A stretch of DNA of 32,903 bases from Patescibacteria group bacterium (GTDB lineage: Bacteria > Patescibacteriota > Saccharimonadia > CAILAD01 > BJGX01): assembly GCA_009691555.1 (NCBI GenBank), contig SICB01000002.1:1-32903 (forward strand). Reading direction: 5' to 3'. The position numbers and the translations under genes were made by a program. Positions 3,049 to 18,907 of this stretch are shown one piece after another; position 1 is the stretch's first letter; every line of letters starts with the position of its first letter. A model generated the notes under the pieces. The model made no database searches, had not been told where the DNA came from, and worked only from the letters and a program-made list of their open reading frames with translations.

Positions 3049-3453
3049 ATGCCAGTAATCAAATCAGCTATCAAGAGAGTCCGCCAAGAAAAAAAGCGCA
3101 AAGCTTACAATATTGGTGTAAAGACATCTGTAAAAGCCAAGTTTAAGGCTGTTCGCGATGAAGTTGCCACGGGCAAAGTCAAGAGCAACGAAGAGCTTGT
3201 AGCTGCTATTAAAGCTATCGACCAAGCTGTACGCAAGGGCGTTATCAACAAACACAGCGCCGGTCGCAAAAAGAGCCGCCTAACACTTGCCTACAACTCT
3301 GTGGCCGAGAAGCCTTTTGGTACCGAGCCTGCCAGCAAGCCTAAGGCTAAAAAAGCTGCCGTCACCAAGAAACCAGCCGCAAAAAAAGCTGCTACCATCA
3401 AAAAGACAGCCGCAAAAAAGCCCGCTACCAAAAAAGCAACTACAAAAAAATAA
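3049..3453 (+). CDS. rpsT: 30S ribosomal protein S20 with a Lys/Ala-rich C-terminal extension
   Basis: The N-terminus MPVIKSAIKRVRQEKKRKAYN is the typical S20 start. The S20 core is about 85 aa. It is followed by about 49 aa of repeats of the AKKAAVTKKPAAKKAATIKK type. Confidence 0.9.
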   Translation: MPVIKSAIKRVRQEKKRKAYNIGVKTSVKAKFKAVRDEVATGKVKSNEELVAAIKAIDQAVRKGVINKHSAGRKKSRLTLAYNSVAEKPFGTEPASKPKAKKAAVTKKPAAKKAATIKKTAAKKPATKKATTKK

Positions 3454-3494
3454 CCAGACTACCAAGCGCTATATAATAATGTCGAGCTAGTCCT

Positions 3495-3520
3495 AAAACC
3501 TCCAAAACGGAGGTTTTTTA
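3495..3520. terminator. bidirectional hairpin terminator between rpsT and holA
   Basis: 9-bp stem aaaacctcc (3495-3503) with ggaggtttt (3509-3517), with T-runs on both strands. It abuts the holA stop codon. Confidence 0.65.
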
Positions 3521-4450
3521 GTTTTTAGAGCTGGGCTCTCGGTTACAAAGGCTATAAAACAGCCCGTTCATGGCTTCTTCGGACGGCAGCGCACCGGTTT
3601 TGGTAGCGATGTCGGCCTCGGAGATGAGCTGGTAAGCCCGTGAGATGTCATCGATATCTAGCCCGCTAACCAAAGGCAGGGCTTTTTGGGTTGAGTACGG
3701 CGATATTTTGTAGGCCTGATTGAGCTGGGGGTTATTGATAATAACCAGCATCAATACCCGGAACTGATAAATAATAGCCCCTAGTATCATCTGGTCGGCG
3801 TAGCCCTGGAGCTTGAGGCTTTTGTATAATTTTATTACTCGCGGCAAATCCTTACGCACCAAGGCTTCGGCCAAGATGAAGGCGTTGTTTTCAAGACTCG
3901 GCGTGGCCAGCTCATCGACCGAAGCCCGTGAAATATCGCTGTTGTAGCTGGCTAGCTTGGCGATTTCGTTATGCAAACTCCACTGGCTCTCGCCCACTAG
4001 GTCAATAAGATAGCCAGCGAGCTGGCTGTCGAGCGTCGCACCTGCTCTGTGGGCCTCGACCAGTGCCCATTTTATGAGCTCGACTCGGCTAGGCCGCCTA
4101 AACTCCGTAGCGCCCTGAACCTTACTCAGGCTCTTATAAAGAGTGGTGCGTTTATCTGGGTTGGGGTCGATAATGACTAGATTAGTGCTATCGGTAGCAT
4201 TTTGCAGTATCGCATCGATCTGTGCTGGGCTCGGTTTGGATTTGGGCAAGTTAGTCAGTATAATCAGCCGGCTACTAACGAACATCGGCATCGCCGACAA
4301 ATTGGCAAGCAGGCCATCGGTTCCCTGCTCGAGGGCATCGATAGATTGCATATCTCCCTCGGATCCAGTTTTTTTGATATATTGAGATTTTATTAGACTC
4401 AGCTGGCGACTGATTGCATAACTATTTTCGCCATATAAATACAAGATCAT
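3518..4450 (-). CDS. holA: DNA polymerase III delta subunit
   Basis: 310-aa ORF starting MILYLYGENSYAISRQL. The length and overall pattern (clamp-loader delta, C-terminal helical domain) are typical of HolA. Confidence 0.8.
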   Translation of the reverse strand: MILYLYGENSYAISRQLSLIKSQYIKKTGSEGDMQSIDALEQGTDGLLANLSAMPMFVSSRLIILTNLPKSKPSPAQIDAILQNATDSTNLVIIDPNPDKRTTLYKSLSKVQGATEFRRPSRVELIKWALVEAHRAGATLDSQLAGYLIDLVGESQWSLHNEIAKLASYNSDISRASVDELATPSLENNAFILAEALVRKDLPRVIKLYKSLKLQGYADQMILGAIIYQFRVLMLVIINNPQLNQAYKISPYSTQKALPLVSGLDIDDISRAYQLISEADIATKTGALPSEEAMNGLFYSLCNREPSSKN

Positions 4451-5406: not shown

Positions 5407-5648
5407 CTGAGGTTTTTAGATTTGAATTGTTCATTAGTCCATTATACCTGATAATTAAACTTTACTTTTATACAATTTTGTTATACTATGTTGTATTGAA
5501 ATCCGTACCTACTAGAAAGGACTATTTTTGAACAAATATAGTCTGGCAGAGAGTATCAAGACATTGGTGGGCATCATGGTAATCTGCACTGCCGCCATGG
5601 CATGCGTGGTTGTCATAATGAGCCTCCCCTGAAACGAAAGGAGCTGCT

Positions 5649-5984
5649 GTGTCTTACGTCAGCAGAAGCAAACTTAAGGGCCACGGCCTTGTCGGCCAGC
5701 TTATCAGTATGACGAGGCTTCTTGACTTGCATAGCTACCAGGAGCAAGAGGTTGTTAATCCGAAATGGTCAAAAGGAATGATCGTTCGTTTCGTGCACAG
5801 ATCCGAAGTGATGTATTTTGAGTTTGAGGGCTTTGGCGACTTGCTTGGGCAGGAGGCCACCCTCTGCTACGGAAACCATGCGATCGCGAGTGGCCTTATC
5901 GGGATCGACAACGATGTCGCTCTCTACTATCAAAACCCCCTACCAAGGGTTGGTATGGCGATTACAGTTGCCACACCCGACTAG
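5649..5984 (+). CDS. hypothetical protein (GTG start)
   Basis: 111-aa ORF with SD AAAGGAG about 6 nt upstream of the GTG. I recognise no family. Confidence 0.35.
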   Translation: MSYVSRSKLKGHGLVGQLISMTRLLDLHSYQEQEVVNPKWSKGMIVRFVHRSEVMYFEFEGFGDLLGQEATLCYGNHAIASGLIGIDNDVALYYQNPLPRVGMAITVATPD

Positions 5985-6022: not shown

Positions 6023-8788
6023 TTACTTGAGATCTCCCCAGCTGGTACCCTGACGAACTTCGGCAATAATAGGAACCTCAAACCGCTGCACGCCCTCCAT
6101 GGCTTGCTTGATAATCTTGGCGACTTGCTCGGCATCAGCCTTGGGACATTCGGCTATCAATTCGTCATGAATTTGCAGTAGCAAGTTTGTTTGCTCTGGG
6201 GCTTTTTTGCCCTTATTAAACTGCTCGAAACTGTTGGCTATGTCGACCATCGCCAGCTTCATCATATCGGCCGCTGTACCCTGCAGGGGCAGATTAACCG
6301 CGGCGCGCTCGGCGGCGGCTCGCACTATAAAATTGCTAGAGCTGACATCTGGGCAGGGGCGGCGGCGGCCAAAAAATGTTTCGGTATAGCCTTCGTCGTG
6401 GGCAAACTTCTTAATACTAGCGATGTATGCAGCAACGCCTTTGCGCAGGCCAAAATAGCTGTCTATAAACTCGCGGGCTTTATCGTAATCAAACCCCGTA
6501 GCAACCGATAGCCCGTGGGGGTTCATACCATACAGCACACCAAAGTTGATGGTCTTGGCGGCGTAGCGCATTTCTTTGGTTACTTTTGCTGGTGCGACGC
6601 CGAACATCTCGGCAGCGGTTAGGGTGTGGATGTCAGCCCCGCTCTTAAAATCGTCGATCATGGGCTGGTCTTTAGCAAGCTCGGCTGCGAGGCGCAGCTC
6701 TATTTGGCTATAATCGGCCGAAACCAGCACCTTACCTGGGCTGGCCACAAAAGCTTTGCGTATTTCTCGACCCATCTCGCTTCGAATCGGTATATTCTGA
6801 AGGTTTGGGTTGGTACTACTGAGGCGGCCTGTCTGGGCGATGGTTTGATTGTAACTAGTGTGGATGCGGTCGTCTGGCTTGACGAGCTTTGGCAAAGCGT
6901 CGACATAGGTACTGGCGAGTTTTGTTAGCTCTCGATACTCGAACATCATATCGACCAGCTCGTGCTTGCCACGAAGTTTTTCGAGCTCACTAGCAGCAGT
7001 ACTAATGCCAGTCTTGGTTTTTTTGAGGCCGGCCGTTGGTATCTTGAGCTTCTCAAATAGCACAACCTGAAGCTGGGCTGGTGAGCTAATGTTGAATTCG
7101 CCGCCGGCTAGCTTCCAGATATCTTTTTGCAACTGATTGATTTTTGAGGCGTATTGAACCGATAGTTTATTCAAAAACTTCGAGTCTAGCTCGACCCCGC
7201 AATACTCCATATCGCCGAGCACCGCAATTAGCGGCCACTCCATTTGTTCGGCAAGTTCGGAAAGTCGCCCAATGGTCTTCAGGTCTTTTTGCAACTTCAG
7301 GTACAATCGCCAGCTAATATCGGCGTCCTCGGCGGCATACTGGCCAGCTTCTTTGATAGCAACTGCGTCAAAAGTTTGTTGGTTTTTGCCTTTTGGTCCA
7401 ATCAGCTCCTCGATACCAATCATTGATATTCCGAGCTCATTATAGGCTAGCTGGCTGAGGCTCTGGGCCCGGCCGATGGGGTTTATCAGATAAGCTGCGA
7501 CCATCGTATCGAAAACAATCGGCCCGAGTCGCAGATTGTTAAACGGACGCATCATGACATAATCGTATTTGATATTGTGCCCGACCTTACCGATAGTTTC
7601 ATCTGCTAGTATTGGACCAATCAAATCAAAAAACTTGGCGTAGTCGATTTCGGTTTTTTCGGCGTGGGCCAGCGGTACATAGTAGGCCTCGCCGGCCTTG
7701 AAGCTAAAAGATGCCCCGACTAACTCGGCGTCGATTTGGTCGGTACTAGTCGTCTCGGTATCAAAAGCAAAGACTTTTTGCTGAGACAGCTCCTTGGCCA
7801 AGGCCTGCAGCTCGGAAACTTTTGTGATGAGCTGGTACTTGGCATCTTTGAGGTGTTGGCGGTTAAACTCTGCGGCGTCATTTTTGTGTTCATCGAAGGC
7901 TTCGGTTTGGTCGTCGGTGACTTTTTTATTCGGCAGTTTGGCCAGCAGGCTCTTGAACTCGAGCTGATGAAAAAGGTCGTAGACACTTTTCTTGTCGTAC
8001 TCGTGTATAACTGCGTCCTTGAGGTCAAAATCGAGCTTCAAATCGAGCTTGATGGTCGATAAATCTTGGCTCATATAGGCACTGTCTTTACCGAGCGTCA
8101 GCTTTTTGGCTACTGCCGGCTTTATATTATTCAGGTTTTCATAAATGGTGTCTAGGTCGTGATACTGGCTTACAAGCTCGGTGGCGGTCTTGTCGCCGAT
8201 ACCAGAAACGCCCGGGATATTGTCGCTAGTATCGCCCTTGAGCGCCTTATATACAATAAACTCCTTGGGGTTAACGCCATACTTGTCGATAACGGCTTGG
8301 GTGTCATAAATAAAGGTATCGCTAAAGCCCTTGCGCATCGTAAATACCGTTGTGGCATCACTAACTAGCTGGAGCTCGTCCATATCGCCCGTCACTACTA
8401 CGACATCGACTTGGTCCTGGTACTGGGCGCTGAGTGAGCCAATGATATCGTCGGCTTCAAAGCCAGGCATCTCCAAAAGAGGAATATTGAAGGCCGCAAT
8501 TACAGCCTTGGTGGTCGGAAACTGATCGTAGAGCTCTTGATCGGCCTTTTTACGGGTGGCCTTGTACTGGTCGTACTGGTCGTGTCGAAAAGTTTTGCCC
8601 GGCGCGTCCCAGGCCACCGCGACATAATCGGGCTTGAGCTCGCGCAGTGCTAAGAGCATCATCATCGTGAAGCCATACACCGCGTTGGTCGGAGTACCAT
8701 CTTTGGTCGTCAAGTGCGGAATTGCATGGTAGCCCCTATGGACTAAGGCGTGGCCGTCGAATACAACTAGTTTTTTGCGTTTGTTCAT
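6023..8788 (-). CDS. polA: DNA polymerase I (5'-nuclease, 3'-5' exonuclease and polymerase domains)
   Basis: 921 aa. The 5'-nuclease N-terminus is LVVFDGHALVHRGYHA. Exo motifs are FAFDTETT, NIKYDYVMM and YAAEDADI. Pol motifs are DYSQIELR, RYAAKTINFGVLYG and QIHDEL. Confidence 0.97.
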   Translation of the reverse strand: MNKRKKLVVFDGHALVHRGYHAIPHLTTKDGTPTNAVYGFTMMMLLALRELKPDYVAVAWDAPGKTFRHDQYDQYKATRKKADQELYDQFPTTKAVIAAFNIPLLEMPGFEADDIIGSLSAQYQDQVDVVVVTGDMDELQLVSDATTVFTMRKGFSDTFIYDTQAVIDKYGVNPKEFIVYKALKGDTSDNIPGVSGIGDKTATELVSQYHDLDTIYENLNNIKPAVAKKLTLGKDSAYMSQDLSTIKLDLKLDFDLKDAVIHEYDKKSVYDLFHQLEFKSLLAKLPNKKVTDDQTEAFDEHKNDAAEFNRQHLKDAKYQLITKVSELQALAKELSQQKVFAFDTETTSTDQIDAELVGASFSFKAGEAYYVPLAHAEKTEIDYAKFFDLIGPILADETIGKVGHNIKYDYVMMRPFNNLRLGPIVFDTMVAAYLINPIGRAQSLSQLAYNELGISMIGIEELIGPKGKNQQTFDAVAIKEAGQYAAEDADISWRLYLKLQKDLKTIGRLSELAEQMEWPLIAVLGDMEYCGVELDSKFLNKLSVQYASKINQLQKDIWKLAGGEFNISSPAQLQVVLFEKLKIPTAGLKKTKTGISTAASELEKLRGKHELVDMMFEYRELTKLASTYVDALPKLVKPDDRIHTSYNQTIAQTGRLSSTNPNLQNIPIRSEMGREIRKAFVASPGKVLVSADYSQIELRLAAELAKDQPMIDDFKSGADIHTLTAAEMFGVAPAKVTKEMRYAAKTINFGVLYGMNPHGLSVATGFDYDKAREFIDSYFGLRKGVAAYIASIKKFAHDEGYTETFFGRRRPCPDVSSSNFIVRAAAERAAVNLPLQGTAADMMKLAMVDIANSFEQFNKGKKAPEQTNLLLQIHDELIAECPKADAEQVAKIIKQAMEGVQRFEVPIIAEVRQGTSWGDLK

Positions 8789-8840: not shown

Positions 8841-9176
8841 ATGTGGTTAAATGTAACTATGACTGAAAAAACATTCCCCTATGAAGCCAATGATTTCCCC
8901 AACAAAAGAGCTTTCTACCCAAAAATTCTTCAAGACGATACTACAGAAGAAAATGATCAACACCTGTCTGACCCAGGAGAAGAAACAGGCAACCCAGGAG
9001 ATTTGGGTGGTGGGTACAATAGCCTAGGAGAGGGCAAAATTACCCCTCCGCCAACCGAGAATCCTTACTGGCCCAACCAAGAGCAGAGAGCTGCTGGCCG
9101 AGAAGGCGTCCAGAGAGCTCGCGAAGCACTCAAGCGACCTAAAAACCCTGAAGCTACTGCCGAAGACCCTAGCTAA
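8841..9176 (+). CDS. hypothetical acidic low-complexity protein (doubtful)
   Basis: 111-aa ORF in an otherwise empty spacer. It is convergent with rpoD and overlaps it by 8 nt. No clear SD, and the composition looks disordered. Confidence 0.25.
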
Positions 9177-10278
9177 TGTAGTCTTTGAGGCGCTTGCTGT
9201 CTTTGTGCTTGCGTAGCTTAGTGAGGGCTTTGGCTTCGATTTGGCGGATTCGCTCTCTGGTTACACCAAACTCCTGCCCGACTTCTTCGAGGGTGTGGCT
9301 ACGGCCGTCTTCGAGCCCAAAGCGCATGCGCAGTATCTTTTGCTCGCGCGGTGTAAGTAGCTCGAGAGTGTCGTCGATGTGTTCCTTGAGAAGTTCGTAG
9401 GTAGCGGCTTCTTCTGGACTGACGGTATCGACGTCTTGAATAAAGTCCCCCAAACTAGAATCCTCGTCTTCGCCAACTGCGGCATCGAGGCTGGTGGTGT
9501 CTTGAGATATCTTAAGAATATGATTAACTTTATCGACATCGATTTCCATCTCTGCAGCCAGCTCTTCTGGTAGTGGCTCACGACCGAGCTCTTGGGTAAG
9601 ACGACGCTGGGTGCGAATCAGTTTGTTGATTGTCTCAACCATATGGACGGGTATTCTAATAACCCGGGCTTGGTCGGCGATAGCGCGGGTGATAGCTTGG
9701 CGAATCCACCAGGTAGCGTAGGTACTAAATTTGAAACCCTTGTGATAATCAAATTTTTCGACGGCTCGAAGCAAGCCGGTGTTGCCCTCTTGGATGAGGT
9801 CGAGTAGGTCTAGGCCGCGGCCGATGTATTTTTTGGCGATACTAACCACCAGGCGCATATTGGCTTCAGCCAGGGCGTCTTTGGCGGCCTTATCGCCCTT
9901 TTCGATTCTTTTGGCGAGCGATACTTCTTCGTCGGCAGTGATAAGCGATATTTTACCGATTTCGCGCAGGTAAAGTCGCACCGAATCGTCGGCGATATCT
10001 TTAATGTTGGCTTCGCTGGTGGCGTTTTCGACATCTTCCTCTGGCTCAGTTTCCCAGAGTTTATCTTTTTGGTCGGTAACTTCAATGCCTTTATCGATGA
10101 GTTGCGAATACAGGTCGTCGAGCAAATCGACGCTGTCTTCGGCCTCGGGAATAGTGGCCTGGATTTCTTGCTGGGTCACGAAACCCTGCTGTCGTCCTTT
10201 GACAATCAGCTTTTCAATTGCTTCACTAAAATCGTTTGTTAGTTTTGGCTCTGGAGTCGATTTGGCTTTTCTAGGCAT
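9169..10278 (-). CDS. rpoD: primary RNA polymerase sigma factor (sigma70 family)
   Basis: Region 2 is [28 protein letters not shown]. Region 4.2 is [23 protein letters not shown]. It lies directly downstream of dnaG, the classical dnaG-rpoD arrangement. Confidence 0.95.
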
Positions 10279-10285
10279 ATAGTTA

Positions 10286-12070
10286 TTAATCCTCGTTTAA
10301 TAGTGCTTGGTAATCTCTTAGGAGCTGTTTTGTTTTTTTGGTGTCTCCATCGGCCTCGGCTTCTGATAGCTGTCGGGCCAAATGGTGCTTGGCTTTTTGT
10401 CTGTTGATTTCTTGAATCCTGGCAACCTGGGTGAAGGCTTCGAGCCTAATGTCGTGCGCCGTCAAATCGGCGTAATTTTGTTCACCTCTTAATGAAAGTA
10501 TTTTAACATAATTTTCTTCTTTAGGCAACGCTTTTAAGACGGTCGCGAACTTTGCTTTGGGAGATTTTTTGAGAACTTCGAATATACTGCGGTGCAACTC
10601 CGAGGATTGTTCCAAATCTAGATCGTCGAGTGACGAGATGTTTTCAGGAAAAGCCAAGCAGAGTTCTAGCAGTATTTGCTCGAGCTTTTCTTGTCTGGTA
10701 AGCTTTCGCTTTTCGGAGGGGCTGTTGGTTGGGTCGGCTTGTGAGTCGATATCGGTCTGGATATCTGGGTTGGCCTGTGGTGGGGTCGAGGGGGTAGCCT
10801 GGGCCTTGGCTAAAACCAATTTGCCGATGCTCTCCTCGGTGGTATCTAGCAACTGAGCGACTACTTTAGTGTAATGTTGGCTTTCGATATCATCGCGCAA
10901 GCTCAAGAGCATCGGGGTAATAAACTTAATAAATTGTTTTTTGCCAGGTGCCGTGGTGGTGCCATATTTATCCTTGGCGATTGCTATTAGATAGTCTGGG
11001 GCGTACTTGGCGTCCTCGACCGCCTTCTGCCATTCGGCTTTGCCTTTTTTGAGAAGCTCATCGGGATCTTTTGCACCCTGGAGGCTGATGATATCAATTT
11101 TGACATCCATCGTTGCTGCGATATCGATGGCCCGAAGCGTTGCAGCAATTCCAGCCTCATCGCTATCGAAGCAAAAAGCGATATTGCCTGTCAGGCGAGC
11201 TAGCTGTTTTAATTGCAGTTGCGTCAGTGCTGTACCGCTACTCGCCACGACATTACTAAAACCAGCATTAGACAGCGCCACAACATCCATATTGCCCTCT
11301 ACCACAACAGCCAGGTCGGCCTGCCTGATGGCCTCCTTGGCCTGAGCCAGTCCATAAATGGCCTCACTCTTGTTGTAAATGGGTGTTTGTGGGGTGTTGA
11401 TATATTTGGCAGTTTTTTCGCTGCCGAGTATTCTGGCGCTAAAGCCCACCACCCGAGCTTGGGTATCGAAAACCGGAAACATCACGCGAGCTCTGAAAAG
11501 ATCGTAGGCACCCTTGCCCTGCTTGCCCTCGACACAGAGGCCAGCAGCAATCAGCTCTTCAACTTTGAAACCTTTTTTGGTCAGGTAGTTGGTGAGCGAT
11601 TCCCAGCTATCAGGCGAATAGCCTAACTTATAATTCTTGATGGTTGCCGAGCTCAATCCCCTGGTTTTAATGAAGTACTCCTTGGCCTTCTCGTTTTTAG
11701 ATAAGCACAAATGAAAGTAGGCCATTGCCGACTGGCAGGCGTCGTAGAGCTTGGTCTTATGGCTGGCGTTGGTTTGGCTCGATCCAGATCTGGGTGTGAG
11801 CTTGACTCCAGCTCGCTTGGCGAGCATCTCGAGGGCTTCAGGAAAGCTCAAGGCCTCCATCTCCATCACAAAACTAATAACGTCGCCGCCCTTGCCCGAG
11901 CTAAAGTCGTGCCAGATATTTTTGTCGGGGCTAACAATAAAGGATGGGGTTTTTTCGGTCTTAAAGGGGCTCAGGCCCTTAAAGCTCTTGCCGGTTTGCT
12001 TTAATGGCACGTAGCCGCTTATGACATCGACTATGTCGAGGCGCGATTTGACTTCATCTACATCGTTCAT
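10286..12070 (-). CDS. dnaG: DNA primase
   Basis: 594 aa. The zinc-binding-domain-like N-terminus is [39 protein letters not shown] motifs are [12 protein letters not shown] and FCFDSDEAG. Confidence 0.95.
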
Positions 12071-15083: not shown

Positions 15084-16406
15084 ATGAAAAAGACAATCAA
15101 AAAAATTGTTCAGCCAATAATTCCAAAGTCGTTGATCAACTTTTTTCACTTCTCGGAGTCGATTGCTGCGGCCCAGAAATACCAGCACCCAAGCAACAAG
15201 ATGATTGTGATTGGGTTGGTTGGTAGTAAGGGCAAAACCACGACTGCCAATATGCTGTGGTCGATTTTGAGTGCCGAAGGCCATAAGGTCGGGCTTATCG
15301 GTACCGCCAATATTCGCTTTGGCCAAAAGGAAGAGCTAAATCATTATCATATGACTATGCCGGGGGCCTTTGTGCTTCAAGGATTACTGGCAAAAATGTC
15401 GGCTATGCACTGTCAATATGTAGTTATGGAAGTGCCATCGGAGGGTCAAACCCAACACCGGCATGTTGGTATCAATTTTGATGTATTGATATTTACCAAT
15501 GTCACCAATGAGCTAATGGCGGCCCATGGCTATAGTATCGACACCCTGCACAAGCACAACAAGCGTGTCTTTAAGCGGCTTAACCACTCTAAACGCAAAA
15601 CTATCGGCTTGCAAAAGATTGCAAAGATAATTGTCGCCAACGCTGACAGTAAAGATGCGCCTGACTACCTGCTGTTTCAGGCTGACAAGAAAATTACTTT
15701 TGGTCGGTCCAAAGATGCCGATTTTAGAATCAGCAATATTGCTCAAATTCCAGATAAAATTAGTTTTGATGTTAATGGTGATAATTACACTACCAAAATA
15801 CTCGGTAAAATAAACGCCATTAATGCAACCGGTGCTATCGCTACGGCTGTTGCGCTTGGTATTAGCGACAGATCTATCAAACAAGGACTGGCCAAGCTCC
15901 CCACCATCCCGGGCCGTATGGAAGTAATCGAGAGCAAGCAGCCCTTCGCTGTGGTGGTCGATTACGCCCATGAGCAAGCCAGCATGACCGCACTGATGGA
16001 CAGTGCGCGCGATATGATACCCAAAGGTGCCAAGGTTATTACCCTTTTGGGTGCCGAGGGTGGCGGACGAGATAGTGCCAAACGCCCCGAAATGGGCGCA
16101 ATCTGCGCCAAGGGCTCGGACATAATAATACTTAGTAATGTTGACCCCTACGATGACGATCCTGAAACAATCCTTGCTGATATCGCGGAGGGGGCGCTTG
16201 GGGCTGGTGCCGAAAAAAATAAGACTATGTTTATTGTCCCCGACCGCCGCGAAGGTATTCGTAAGGCCCTAGAGCTAGCTAGCAAAGACGACATAGTACT
16301 AATTACCGGCAAAGGTGCCGAACAGTCGATGGAAATTGGCGGCCAGTCGATAGCTTGGGATGACAGAAAAGTTGTCCGCGAAGAGCTGGCAAAATTAGTC
16401 GGTTAA
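15084..16406 (+). CDS. Mur ligase family protein, MurE-like, with a short N-terminal domain
   Basis: The P-loop is GLVGSKGKTTTANM. VVVDYAHE and GAEGGGRDSAKRPEMG match Mur ligase central and C-terminal motifs. The position of the MurE DNPR motif reads NVDPY. Confidence 0.8.
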   Translation: MKKTIKKIVQPIIPKSLINFFHFSESIAAAQKYQHPSNKMIVIGLVGSKGKTTTANMLWSILSAEGHKVGLIGTANIRFGQKEELNHYHMTMPGAFVLQGLLAKMSAMHCQYVVMEVPSEGQTQHRHVGINFDVLIFTNVTNELMAAHGYSIDTLHKHNKRVFKRLNHSKRKTIGLQKIAKIIVANADSKDAPDYLLFQADKKITFGRSKDADFRISNIAQIPDKISFDVNGDNYTTKILGKINAINATGAIATAVALGISDRSIKQGLAKLPTIPGRMEVIESKQPFAVVVDYAHEQASMTALMDSARDMIPKGAKVITLLGAEGGGRDSAKRPEMGAICAKGSDIIILSNVDPYDDDPETILADIAEGALGAGAEKNKTMFIVPDRREGIRKALELASKDDIVLITGKGAEQSMEIGGQSIAWDDRKVVREELAKLVG

Positions 16407-16503
16407 GCTTTACTGCTACCCTCTAGATGTAAACAGTGCTGGGCACATCCCCACCATTGAGATAAAAAATAAAAAGATCAGCCCTTATTTGTCCTTACAA
16501 TAT

Positions 16504-16531
16504 GCCCAACGTGTGTACTTGGCACGTCATT
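16504..16531. repeat. left copy of the 28-bp perfect inverted repeat
   Basis: gcccaacgtgtgtacttggcacgtcatt is the exact reverse complement of 18577-18604. Confidence 0.9.
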
Positions 16532-16554
16532 AACACTCGTGGTTACGGTACGCC

Positions 16555-17148
16555 CTAATTACTAATTTTTCTAGCGATAATATCAAAAACATGCCAATGT
16601 TTTGGATTTCCATCCGCTGTTTTACCTTCAAATTCTTTTACGTCAAATAGTATCACATTCATATCGCCGAGCATCAATTGCGCTTCTTCTTTTGTAACAA
16701 AAGTCAGATTTTTATTCAGATGCCATTCATCACGATTTCCAAAAAATTGCCCACAAAAAATTCCATTTTTAACTAGAGATTTTTTTATACCTTCAAACAC
16801 GCCAGTAAACTTACTGGAATGGATAAATGGCAATGAGTATATAGCCGCGGCTACGTCATACTCATTTTGAGGAAAATCAAAATCAGCAAAATCGGTGCGG
16901 AAAAATTTCAGCTCGTTTGATTTAATATTTTGAACAGAGTCCTCCACTGCTTTCTCTTTATCAATAATCGTTGTTTCAAAGCCCTGAGAAAGTAAATATT
17001 TAGTGTCTTTCAATGTACCTCCACCGCCAATATCTATTGCTTTATTTTTGACTTTAACATACTCCATGGCTTTAACGAGTAATGGAGCCGGAGGATAGCT
17101 CTTTGTATTCTCAAAATAATTTTCCCAATCAATTGATTTGTTATTCAT
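16555..17148 (-). CDS. class I SAM-dependent methyltransferase (TehB-like size and motifs)
   Basis: I trimmed the start to MNNKSIDW (ATG at 17148), because the tracked N-terminal extension runs through the upstream terminator hairpin. Motif I is AIDIGGGGTLKD. The gene is about 33% GC in the two 60-nt rows I counted, versus about 50% in the neighbours. Confidence 0.75.
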   Translation of the reverse strand: MNNKSIDWENYFENTKSYPPAPLLVKAMEYVKVKNKAIDIGGGGTLKDTKYLLSQGFETTIIDKEKAVEDSVQNIKSNELKFFRTDFADFDFPQNEYDVAAAIYSLPFIHSSKFTGVFEGIKKSLVKNGIFCGQFFGNRDEWHLNKNLTFVTKEEAQLMLGDMNVILFDVKEFEGKTADGNPKHWHVFDIIARKISN

Positions 17149-17170
17149 GTAGATTATTATAACAAAAATT

Positions 17171-17214
17171 AAAAAAAATCCTACACAGTATACAATGATG
17201 TATACTGTGTAGGA
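17171..17214 (-). terminator. strong rho-independent terminator after the 27-aa peptide gene
   Basis: Perfect 16-bp stem tcctacacagtataca (17179-17194) with tgtatactgtgtagga (17199-17214) and a 4-nt loop. A8 at 17171-17178 gives U8 downstream on the minus strand. Confidence 0.8.
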
Positions 17215-17232
17215 TAGCACTACGGTCACAGG

Positions 17233-17316
17233 TTACGTTGTGCAGCCCTGACAGGATGCGCATTTCGCGGAGTAAAGCTTCTCAGCGATGCGCTTAATTC
17301 GTTCCTGACGTGTCAT
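17233..17316 (-). CDS. 27-aa Cys-rich peptide MTRQERIKRIAEKLYSAKCASCQGCTT (candidate RiPP precursor)
   Basis: Not in the ORF track because it is too short. ATG is at 17316 and TAA at 17233-17235. SD AAGGAGGTGAT lies 4 nt before the ATG. It is 35 nt downstream of the oxygenase stop and 18 nt upstream of the terminator hairpin. Confidence 0.5.
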   Translation of the reverse strand: MTRQERIKRIAEKLYSAKCASCQGCTT

Positions 17317-17351
17317 TTCTATCACCTCCTTCTTTCTGGGATCGTGCGGGT

Positions 17352-18008
17352 TCATACGTACTGTATAAAAACCCTGAGCTGTAAACGCCTACTCGACGGA
17401 TCAAGCTGATCGCGTCCATGAAGCATTACGAAGTTATCGAACCAGATTGCCTGACCAGCCTTGAGCTTAAAAGACAAAAATCTTTTCTCACTCCGTCGGA
17501 TCAACAGTACCTCGTTGAAGCGTTTGATCGCGGTCACTTGGGAATCATTGAGCTTGTCTAGATTCACGAGGGCGAACGCTGGCAGCCAGTAAACGTGCGG
17601 TGGTCGACCTTCTTCTACGGTCAACAGCGGGAGCCGATCTTCACTGCGTGGCAAGGGTATCTGAACACTTTTCAAGTCCTCAACCTCTAGCAGAGAAAGC
17701 TCTCCCAGTATGTCACGAGTATCAATCAGCAGATTCTCTCCACCACCCAGATTATCCACCTCTTCACAAAACAAGCCCACAACGTTCGCTAGCGGATAAT
17801 CTGTATGAAACGGAACCTCATCCGGTAAGTGGGAGTACCCGGTGTATTTTTCCACCGTTTCTTTGGGTTTGAGGAAAATTTCCCTGGTTTGAGTAACCTT
17901 GCCAAGTTCGTTACAAATTGCCAAGTAGTTTTCCCTGTCGCCGACATCGGCGATAACGTACCTGTTCAGATCGAGACAGCTACGGATATTCAATACGCTA
18001 GGTTTCAT
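17352..18008 (-). CDS. TauD/TfdA-family Fe(II)/2-oxoglutarate-dependent oxygenase
   Basis: The HxD motif is in VPFHTDYP. The distal His and Arg are in FDNFVMLHGRD. I prefer the ATG at 18008 (GAGG 9 nt upstream) over the tracked GTG at 18023. It overlaps the upstream gene by 11 nt. Confidence 0.75.
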   Translation of the reverse strand: MKPSVLNIRSCLDLNRYVIADVGDRENYLAICNELGKVTQTREIFLKPKETVEKYTGYSHLPDEVPFHTDYPLANVVGLFCEEVDNLGGGENLLIDTRDILGELSLLEVEDLKSVQIPLPRSEDRLPLLTVEEGRPPHVYWLPAFALVNLDKLNDSQVTAIKRFNEVLLIRRSEKRFLSFKLKAGQAIWFDNFVMLHGRDQLDPSSRRLQLRVFIQYV

Positions 18009-18498
18009 GATGCACCGCCTCACAGGGTTGATCGAAAAGTCTCGGTTTCTGAAGCTTGACGAGCACTTCGGCTGAGTATCTTACGGAATATTCTTCATAC
18101 CACCTGATCATCGTGTCCTCGCCGACTACTTCGCAGATGTAGTTCAGTTGCAACTCAGTTTCTTCGCGACTGGGTGGTTGGAAGTCGGGTGCGCCCGGGG
18201 AATGATGAATGAAGGTCCCCAGATACTCCTTACAGAATTGCTCGTAGTCGCGCGTATGGAGGACGAAGGTGTGCCAATATTCATCGACAACCACCATCCC
18301 CGAATGGATGACCAGAATACGCGGGATGTCTTCGTGATTTTGCGAGCGATCTTGCTTCAGTCGGGCATTGAGCCATAACCACTTAAGTGCCTCTAAGGCG
18401 ATTTCCTGCGCCTCGGGCAATGAGACCGCATACAATACTCTGAACTGGTTAAGTACTCGGTCGTTCTTATAGTTCAAGGCTTCCTCGAGACTACGCAT
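17998..18498 (-). CDS. hypothetical His-rich protein, possibly DUF1399/GRDP-like
   Basis: I trimmed the start to MRSLEEAL (ATG at 18498, SD AAGGAG 5 nt upstream). The motif VVDEYWHTFVLHTRDYEQFCKEYLGTFIHHSP resembles the D-x2-WH-x-H-x-L-x3-Y-x3-C...HH-P pattern I recall for glycine-rich-domain-containing-protein-like families. That is recollection only. Confidence 0.6.
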   Translation of the reverse strand: MRSLEEALNYKNDRVLNQFRVLYAVSLPEAQEIALEALKWLWLNARLKQDRSQNHEDIPRILVIHSGMVVVDEYWHTFVLHTRDYEQFCKEYLGTFIHHSPGAPDFQPPSREETELQLNYICEVVGEDTMIRWYEEYSVRYSAEVLVKLQKPRLFDQPCEAVHHET

Positions 18499-18549
18499 GT
18501 TCACTCCTTCCTGGAGTTTATTGAGATTGTTAATGTACACTAAAAACAC

Positions 18550-18578
18550 AGATTACCAGAAGGTGACCTTTTTATCAA
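18550..18578 (-). promoter_or_regulatory. sigma70-like promoter for the islet operon, TTGATA-17nt-TAATCT on the minus strand
   Basis: The minus-strand -35 TTGATA is plus-strand tatcaa at 18573-18578 and overlaps the inner end of the right inverted repeat. The -10 TAATCT is plus-strand agatta at 18550-18555. The spacer is 17 nt. Confidence 0.4.
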
Positions 18579-18604
18579 TGACGTGCCAAGTACACACGTT
18601 GGGC
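18577..18604. repeat. right copy of the 28-bp perfect inverted repeat
   Basis: aatgacgtgccaagtacacacgttgggc is the exact reverse complement of 16504-16531. Its outer 5 nt (tgggc, 18600-18604) are already part of the Mur-ligase-tail homology. Confidence 0.9.
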
Positions 18605-18907
18605 GCAATCTGCGCCAAGGGCTCGGACATAATAATACTTAGTAATGTTGACCCCTACGAAGACGATCCTGAAACAATCCTTGCTGATATCGCTGAGGGG
18701 GCGCTTGGGGCTGGTGCCGAAAAAAATAAGAGTATGTTTATTGTCCCCGACCGCCGCGAAGGTATTCGCAAAGCCTTGCAGTTGGCCCAAAAAGACGACT
18801 TGGTGCTAATTACCGGCAAGGGTGCCGAACAGTCGATGGAAATTGGCGGCCAGTCGATAGCTTGGGATGATAGAAAAGTTGTCCGCGAAGAGCTATTGAA
18901 GCTTTAA
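18600..18907 (+). pseudogene. displaced 3' fragment of the Mur ligase gene (about 102 codons)
   Basis: It encodes GAICAKGSDIIILSNVDPYEDDPETILADIAEGALGAGAEKNKSMFIVPDRREGIRKALQLAQKDDLVLITGKGAEQSMEIGGQSIAWDDRKVVREELLKL. That is nearly identical to the C-terminus of the 15084-16406 product. It lacks the ATPase domain. Confidence 0.8.

Follow-up and report, generated by a model that had tools for sequence, protein, structure and literature searches.

Here, we describe a 2.1-kb minus-strand cassette within a 32,903-nucleotide (nt) stretch of a Patescibacteria group bacterium genome (GenBank assembly GCA_009691555.1, contig SICB01000002.1; hereafter the window), whose first product, a protein of 166 amino acids (aa), is by sequence comparison homologous to the N-terminal domain of MctA (=Hp1), a determinant of the Escherichia coli microcin Mcc1229. 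With a probability of roughly 0.55, we read the cassette as a split, exporter-less variant of an Mcc1229-like (MctA/MctC-type) peptide-modification system, equipped with a TauD-type oxygenase and a methyltransferase. The cassette shares the central and only family-specific component of the Mcc1229 cluster, though it fails most other features of that cluster, and it is therefore classed as a variant of this barely characterised system. Its features are as follows.

18550–18578, minus strand: promoter-like TTGATA (18578–18573), 17-nt spacer and TAATCT (18555–18550), upstream of the 166-aa gene; read from sequence
17998–18498, minus strand: 166-aa open reading frame (ORF) with Shine–Dalgarno sequence (SD) GGAAGGAG; all-helical in the model, PF27765 'UCP032817-like', homologue of the MctA N-terminal domain
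17352–18008, minus strand: 218-aa TauD/TfdA-family Fe(II)/2-oxoglutarate (2OG) oxygenase (PF02668), its start overlapping the upstream stop by 11 nt
17233–17316, minus strand: 27-aa ORF MTRQERIKRIAEKLYSAKCASCQGCTT, 35 nt past the TauD stop, with strong SD AAGGAGGTGA; N-terminal amphipathic helix, then C-terminal CxxCxxC
17170–17215, minus strand: intrinsic-terminator-like hairpin plus T8, between the peptide ORF and the methyltransferase
16555–17148, minus strand: 197-aa class I S-adenosylmethionine (SAM)-dependent methyltransferase with weak TehB/TPMT-like affinity

An earlier sequence-only reading had proposed this whole unit, and every feature was found where it had been placed. Only the hairpin needed correction: its stem is indeed perfect and followed by T8, but the arms (17178–17194 and 17199–17215, around a 4-nt loop) span 17 bp and not 16 bp. 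That reading had also called the locus a candidate undescribed system resembling those for peptides made on the ribosome and then modified post-translationally (RiPPs). The bioinformatic tests favoured such a system, whereas 'undescribed' proved too strong, as Mcc1229 is a genetically characterised relative.

Homology of the 166-aa protein to MctA

In a tblastn search, the 166-aa protein matched the leading ORF of the mct operon with E=5e-19, at 30% identity across 92% of its own length. The plasmids carrying the match are small, ColE1-like and from E. coli, and p0.1229_3 itself is one of them (ORF 3094–3792). Direct comparison paired residues 1–153 with residues 17–176 of MctA (BLASTP, 3e-27), and hhalign returned 99.8%. 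As an MctA homologue, the protein belongs with a microcin determinant bearing a Cys-rich C-terminal region, and not with a well-characterised family unrelated to peptides, an outcome that the sequence-only reading had named as one that would weaken its proposal. Genetic work has established that mctA, mctB (an ATP-binding cassette (ABC) transporter) and mctC (a cupin) are needed for Mcc1229, a secreted, heat-stable, proteinase-K-sensitive and SOS-inducing activity that is exported via TolC and imported via CirA/TonB, with mctD/E giving immunity; the chemical identity of the microcin is unsolved, and the authors remark on the cysteine-rich C-terminal region of MctA (bioRxiv 10.1101/646182; PMC8853679). 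MctC is a JmjC-type protein (PF08007, JmjC_2), another 2OG-oxygenase fold.

The 166-aa protein gave no match in local copies of Pfam, NCBIfam and PADLOC. Its family name comes from precomputed PF27765 labels only, PF27765 being missing from the local Pfam copy; all 25 close relatives (at least 46% identity) carry the label PF27765 'UCP032817-like'. The AlphaFold model is all-helical, with a predicted local distance difference test score (pLDDT) of 88.7. Since no relative was found in the PDB either by sequence or by fold (Foldseek, best E 1.8, template modelling score <0.25), HD-domain and ferritin-like readings were dropped. A profile search recovered 4,510 representative clusters at E ≤1e-3, with the core motif IDEMWHxFILFTxDYxxFCxxYFGxFIHHxP. 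Across this superfamily, in an alignment at 29% identity, D72, W75, Y85, C89, P101, G126 and W133 are invariant and H76, H98 and H99 nearly so. Viral relatives of the domain are remote only.

Some PF27765 members are named 'glycine-rich domain-containing protein', and one (P0245) also matches DUF1399 (PF07173). The plant GRDP/DUF1399 proteins share a core motif of the WH..(I/L)..T..Y type with the family, some bacterial members of which are so named by NCBI. They differ in that the 166-aa protein has no PF07173 match in the local Pfam, and the plant proteins have no known biochemical activity.

A conserved Cys-rich peptide, split or fused

Ten distinct close loci were compared: the window and L001, L004, L007, L010, L013, L015, L016/L040, L039 and L042. 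The order is identical in all ten, running from the PF27765 gene through the TauD-type gene and the 27-aa ORF to the hairpin with its T-run and the methyltransferase, so that a conserved precursor-like gene with a strong SD stands next to putative tailoring enzymes at every locus, as expected of RiPP loci in general. The inspected contexts of these cassettes differ, and the co-occurrence of three enzyme families, on which the sequence-only reading depended, was borne out.

The ten distinct alleles of the small ORF each comprise exactly 27 codons behind AAGGAGG. Ten residues are invariant (T2, R3, R6, I7, I10, L14, C19, C22, G24 and C25), among them three Cys, and a fourth Cys (C15) is present in half of the alleles. 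Synonymous variation is evident, T2 and L14 each being written with four different codons, and pN/pS is 0.33. The 27-aa peptide is under amino-acid constraint, and the small ORF is a real gene, as the sequence-only reading had anticipated. An alternative in-frame ATG upstream at 17355 (ATGA overlap with the TauD stop) would give 40 aa, but this extension is not conserved in other loci, and we therefore take the 27-aa form as the gene. Scans of seven small peptides against local Pfam, NCBIfam and PADLOC returned nothing. An apparent second peptide copy in L013 proved to be a chance DNA match.

The peptide has counterparts beyond the close family. Past its domain, MctA continues into ...LPAAEFVKIIMRKDVWNDNGSVCGCSGKGCGAGCSCNSR, and similar tails end other members (...DAVIAEILATRFKNRYCRGCGVYCTCRRKCTD in P0084; also P0085). 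The split peptides can be aligned with the tails found on MctA, P0084, P0085 and P0130, all having an amphipathic helix and then a Cys cluster. This layout, possibly one of leader and core, is common to split and fused forms, with neither cleavage site nor protease identified. Among intermediate relatives without such a tail, a small ORF on the same strand, with a Cys cluster at its C-terminus, adjoins the PF27765 start or overlaps it in five of the six loci with DNA (L043, L044, L046, L047 and L048); with a background rate of 5.5% for such an ORF in the fetched loci, the probability of five in six is ~3e-6. At a seventh intermediate locus, listed without DNA, a 66-aa gene overlaps the PF27765 start. 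Across the PF27765 superfamily, the same helix-plus-Cys-cluster peptide is either fused C-terminally to the domain or encoded by a separate adjacent ORF. Borosins offer a parallel without homology, their core peptide being fused to the C-terminus of a partner domain (OphMA-type) or encoded apart. The borosin domain is an α-N-methyltransferase, and fused and split precursor/methyltransferase forms exist.

More distant members carry C-terminal CGxC or long Gly/Ser/Cys tails. A conserved protein of ~360 aa (cluster 1) follows the PF27765 gene in 11 of 22 distant loci (L017–L036; for example, L019 5339–6442 and L032 5259–6326). Searches of Pfam, NCBIfam and the PDB yielded no match for it, and each of the seven examples read terminates in a tail of the SCSSCSSCSSCGGD or CGGGCGGGCGG type (SCSSCSSC...GGD-type). 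This two-gene module was seen in metagenome-assembled genomes (MAGs) labelled Kapaibacterium, Flammeovirgaceae/Tunicatimonas, Tenacibaculum, Planctomycetaceae, Verrucomicrobiota, SAR324 and Marinicella. Separately, gammaproteobacterial PF27765 members at five loci (L018, L023, L030, L033 and L035) combine a transmembrane helix at the N-terminus with the core motif and with a long tail, rich in Gly and Cys, whose last residues are GGGD.

Such tails recall MNIO (DUF692) bufferins and the TIGR04222 membrane proteins, in which Cys-rich cores or tails are presumed targets of non-haem iron enzymes. TIGR04222 proteins have Ser/Gly/Cys-rich C-terminal tails, and Cys-rich targets sometimes sit on large proteins (PMC12452194); the Gly/Ser/Cys tails of distant PF27765 members are very like them. 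TIGR04222 was considered as a candidate family, and the gammaproteobacterial members have an architecture similar to that of its proteins, which are discussed as MNIO substrates, yet no tested member matches the model. No protein tested matched MNIO, DUF2063 or TIGR04222 models, and the iron enzyme of the cassette is of the TauD family.

Set beside the Mcc1229 cluster mctABCDE (E. coli p0.1229_3, pHUSEC41-3), the cassette shares an MctA-like domain (equivalent to MctA residues 17–176), a 2OG-type oxygenase gene in the same operon, a Cys-rich C-terminal peptide preceded by an amphipathic helix, and a location on mobile DNA. The differences are as clear. The peptide is fused in MctA and separate in the cassette, where the 166-aa protein ends in ...QPCEAVHHET with a single Cys and thus lacks the Cys-rich C-terminus of MctA. 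Both oxygenases have 2OG-oxygenase folds but belong to distinct families, the JmjC/cupin MctC (PF08007) in one case and a TauD-family protein (PF02668) in the other. The ABC exporter MctB and the DUF4440/DUF2164 immunity pair MctD/E have no counterpart in the cassette (16400–18700 was checked for the pair), whereas a methyltransferase is present there and absent from Mcc1229. Finally, Mcc1229 hosts are Enterobacteriaceae, and relatives of the cassette are mainly from Patescibacteria.

Mcc1229 is a clinically relevant E. coli microcin and an inducer of the SOS response, prophages and Shiga toxin production, and its chemistry has been unsolved since 2019. The present comparison places MctA, its key determinant, in a very large domain family tied to fused or split Cys-rich peptides, and the 27-aa peptide together with three small, soluble predicted enzymes provides a compact, testable system for the role of the PF27765 domain. 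The literature searched contained no description of PF27765/UCP032817, of DUF1399 with RiPPs, or of a link between TauD and RiPPs in Patescibacteria. Two findings are new in that neither was met in that literature: the systematic coupling of PF27765 to Cys-rich peptides, and a minimal, soluble four-gene version on a mobile islet, mostly in Patescibacteria.

Partner enzymes and competing explanations

The promoter-proximal unit consists of the PF27765 gene, the overlapping, translationally coupled TauD-type gene and the 27-aa ORF, and is closed by the hairpin and T-run; the methyltransferase gene follows. The promoter TTGATA-17-TAATCT was not reported by a consensus promoter scan because its −10 hexamer fits only 3/6 consensus positions, but the position of the −35/−10 pair is kept in L001, L039/L012 and L042.

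The oxygenase matches its family model at E=1.3e-11 (45.4 bits; cut-off 27), and H68-x-D70, H197 and R208 are invariant among 19 TauD-like homologues. Foldseek searches with its AlphaFold2 model (pLDDT 82) gave AsnO, TtnM, IsnB/PvcB, CarC and TmpA as top matches (E ~4e-8 to AsnO and others). Family match, HxD...H triad, 2OG-binding Arg and double-stranded β-helix fold together place it in TauD/TfdA. The predicted structure appears nearest to amino-acid β-hydroxylases and their relatives, a likeness that implies no specific function.

Outside the close family, a TauD-like gene was seen with PF27765 only in L028, from a Legionella sp. MAG. Both genes there come after a radical SAM/SPASM peptide maturase of the GrrM/OscB type (TIGR04261, 352 bits; cut-off 310) and are preceded by a 57-aa ORF with WSK and WSQ motifs that ends ...WSQCTS, while an ABC ATPase and a clan AA aspartic protease-like protein lie upstream. 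The region L028 1–5219 is a candidate triceptide-type cluster.

The methyltransferase, present in every complete cassette, passes a single model, the generic class I Methyltransf_11 (24.1 bits; cut-off 21.2), and falls short of the TehB/TPMT models (PF03848, 19.5 against 20.4; NF008405, 31 against 218). Related pairings exist elsewhere: P0129 is a PF27765-TPMT fusion, and methyltransferases adjoin the PF27765 gene in L043 and L046. Between the cassette enzyme and the TPMT domain of P0129 there is generic class I similarity only. The methyltransferase ATG (17148–17170 region) has no SD, and an extended −10-like TGTTATAAT ends 7 nt before it, which suggests a promoter of its own and a leaderless mRNA. 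TAGAAT boxes of this kind are also seen in L001 and L016 but are not clear in L007 or L013.

Pfam and NCBIfam scans of the four products detected no class-defining RiPP enzyme (lanthipeptide, YcaO/azoline, radical SAM, MNIO, ATP-grasp or lasso), in agreement with the sequence-only reading. On our interpretation as an Mcc1229-like variant, the PF27765 protein would bind the N-terminal helix of the peptide and either present its CxxCxxC-T-T/S core to the partner enzymes or itself act via a metal site formed by D72, H76, C89, H98 and H99. The TauD-like enzyme would then oxidise or hydroxylate a core residue, and the methyltransferase would methylate the product, possibly on sulfur. The end product might be a toxin of the Mcc1229 kind, a peptide that binds metal or a cofactor used inside the cell.

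A known parallel is the pairing of a 2OG hydroxylase gene with a small helical protein with conserved His/Asp in SmaO/SmaX, PhnY/PhnZ and TmpA/TmpB. SmaO/SmaX turn an Asp of a RiPP into aminomalonate (PMC12186529). By structure and in NCBIfam, the neighbours of the cassette TauD-like protein include TmpA. However, SmaX, PhnZ and TmpB are HD-domain proteins, and Foldseek matched the 166-aa model to no PDB chain, whether HD-domain or other. Sequential action of a hydroxylase and then a His-rich metalloenzyme in the cassette would be an analogy only.

Several points weigh against the Mcc1229-like interpretation. Modification of the peptide by the neighbouring enzymes is a candidate activity only. 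The mct product itself was never identified, and MctA as its precursor is a presumption of the original authors (bioRxiv 10.1101/646182; PMC8853679). Because the PF27765 model has no structural neighbour, the argument for a catalytic role comes solely from its conserved residues. Since Mcc1229 has a JmjC cupin and the cassette a TauD-family oxygenase, the two chemistries need not match. In contrast to Mcc1229 and most RiPP clusters, the islet showed no ABC transporter or other exporter, no protease and no immunity gene in the ORF list and in the Pfam/NCBIfam and PADLOC scans. The set of TauD, methyltransferase and 27-aa ORF does not extend beyond the close family (at least 46% identity), and PF27765 relatives at intermediate distance have differing partners (methyltransferases, glycosyltransferases or a B12 radical SAM enzyme). 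The methyltransferase, lying behind the terminator, may be expressed independently.

A bolder extension, which we hold tentatively and at clearly less than even odds, is that PF27765 is the class-defining maturase of a large unrecognised ribosomal-peptide family spanning the 4,510 representative clusters. As a metalloenzyme with a new fold, it would act on Cys-rich cores in cis (MctA-type) or in trans (the cassette). With a 2OG oxygenase, it would convert cysteines to an oxidised sulfur heterocycle or similar, which a TPMT/TehB-like enzyme would then S-methylate; the islet would be the minimal four-gene form, and the scheme would explain Mcc1229. If the PF27765 domain is catalytic, it would define a new RiPP class with a new fold, and the cassette would be a horizontally mobile peptide-natural-product locus in genome-reduced Patescibacteria.

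The main rival, unlikely in our judgement, holds that the 27-aa product is a metal-binding micro-subunit (Zn, Fe or metalloid via CxxCxxC) in complex with the His/Cys-bearing 166-aa protein, and that the cassette acts on a small molecule or metal(loid), for example by oxidation and methylation as in TehB/TPMT-type detoxification. The three or four Cys of the peptide and the conserved D, H, C, H and H of the 166-aa domain would suit such a role, as would the weak TehB-like matches and the P0129 fusion; resistance functions are common on small mobile cassettes, and the lack of protease, exporter and immunity gene keeps this explanation alive. The TehB matches are, however, under the cut-offs, and the cores vary widely among subfamilies (CCCC, CxxC, CGxC repeats), a pattern expected of RiPP cores more than of a fixed metal site. 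In E. coli, moreover, the fused homologue MctA and an ABC exporter are needed for a secreted, protease-sensitive antibacterial activity (10.1101/646182; PMC8853679), and the Legionella homologue pair lies within a radical-SAM peptide-maturase cluster.

A further explanation, doubtful to a similar degree, retains peptide modification and reduces the 166-aa protein to a leader-binding scaffold, akin to a RiPP recognition element, leaving hydroxylation and methylation of the core to the TauD-like enzyme and the methyltransferase. The amphipathic helix N-terminal to the Cys cluster does resemble a recognition helix in split and fused forms alike, the domain-plus-peptide pair stays constant while partner enzymes switch between subfamilies, and the domain has no fold neighbour among known enzymes. 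Yet residues invariant (D72, W75, Y85, C89, P101) or nearly so (H76, H98, H99) at 29% identity would suit a binding groove less well than a metal or active site, and some members have no obvious enzyme partner besides the ~360-aa protein.

An equivalent hairpin (13–18 bp) with a T-run is present in 10/10 loci, with differing stem sequences, ΔG of −25 to −35 kcal/mol and z of −5 to −8. The sequence-only reading had raised the alternative of a leader peptide that controls this hairpin ahead of the methyltransferase. Framed as attenuation, in which translation of the small ORF would act in cis and sense Cys-tRNA supply, we now consider it highly improbable: three Cys codons do fall among the last nine, 20–30 nt upstream of a strong terminator preceding the methyltransferase, but folding of the ten loci showed no conserved antiterminator pairing between coding region and hairpin, the terminator folding alone and the coding region pairing within itself, so the model is not supported; in addition, N-terminal residues of the peptide are kept at the amino-acid level with synonymous variation, and homologues of the peptide are found as fused tails or ahead of PF27765 genes that have no terminator of this kind.

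Islet borders and spread of the cassette

The four genes lie exactly between the two arms of an inverted repeat, and the islet holds no ORFs other than these. The arms are complementary over 28/28 nt, with none expected in shuffles, and are flanked by two copies of the 3′ end of murE. Neither the arms nor the murE copies had been noted in the sequence-only reading.

16504–16531, no strand assigned: inverted-repeat arm, GCCCAACGTGTGTACTTGGCACGTCATT, 3′ of the methyltransferase; L001 keeps this arm with one mismatch
18577–18604, no strand assigned: inverted-repeat arm upstream of the promoter, abutting the murE remnant; degenerate counterpart in L001
16093–16406, plus strand: direct-repeat copy 1, the 3′ end of intact murE (15084–16406), followed by a 97-nt unique spacer (16407–16503)
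18600–18907, plus strand: direct-repeat copy 2, an orphan murE 3′ end adjoining trhO; 94% identical to copy 1

The murE direct repeat covers 295 nt (16093–16387 and 18600–18894). Its two copies differ by nine synonymous codons and five conservative replacements, with zero frameshifts. Such mostly synonymous differences point to two orthologues that diverged under selection and not to a decaying duplication in situ, and the cassette would accordingly have come with the murE 3′ end of its donor. Judged from these borders, the cassette is a horizontally imported islet. Import would have occurred by recombination with the donor murE 3′ end, leaving the recipient's own murE 3′ end orphaned beside the upstream inverted repeat. 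We infer one homologous crossover in murE plus one illegitimate crossover at microhomology; at the orphan murE junction there is a TGGGC microhomology to the end of the repeat. The 97-nt spacer between the murE stop and the downstream repeat arm has no counterpart at the orphan murE and presumably came from the donor. A search for an empty site by exact look-up of the window TrhO protein gave no record.

The neighbours of the islet in the window are housekeeping genes (polA, rpoD, dnaG, murE, trhO, pyrH and dus), and GC content drops to 38% over the methyltransferase. The inverted repeats, the two murE copies and these neighbours bear out the sequence-only view of an acquired islet in a housekeeping region.

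A non-autonomous element (miniature inverted-repeat transposable element (MITE) or mobile insertion cassette) would have terminal inverted repeats, as the cassette does. The short target-site duplication, further copies or transposase of a MITE were not found; the flanks are instead long diverged repeats, 295 nt of murE in the window and 80 nt of tRNA-like sequence in L001. No further copy of the inverted repeat exists within the window, and viral contigs gave no exact match to it. In L039 and L042 the cassette is present without the inverted repeats, which therefore typify one sub-lineage and are dispensable for the cassette as such.

The four genes travel as one unit between Patescibacteria genomes. 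Genomic contexts are all unrelated in the seven loci with inspected flanks (the window, L001, L004, L007, L010, L039 and L042), and DNA homology between loci extends from the −35 hexamer to ~25 nt beyond the methyltransferase stop. The named sources of close relatives are Patescibacteria MAGs, except for one Gammaproteobacteria-labelled MAG (L015); the others are unbinned metagenome contigs.

L001 is 91% identical to the window over the full repeat-to-repeat span, and its cassette adjoins an array of tRNA-Tyr units and lies between diverged 80-nt repeats of the 3′ half of a tRNA-like sequence. The array comprises three tandem tRNA-Tyr-like units (L001 5540–5909), of which ARAGORN calls only 5647–5733; the other two share its 5′ end and carry ~60-nt insertions. 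The cassette directly follows the third unit, and an 80-nt diverged copy of the 3′ half of that unit (8010–8089) lies beyond it.

At L015, two copies of a 39-nt GC-rich palindrome (4260–4298 and 7482–7520), with the look of repetitive extragenic palindromic sequences, bracket the cassette at some distance. In L007, assigned to Doudnabacteria, the cassette lies ~2.4 kb downstream of dnaG-rpoD (L007 717–3646, compared with window 9169–12070). As dnaG-rpoD of the window lies ~4–6 kb from the islet, the likeness is either residual synteny or coincidence.

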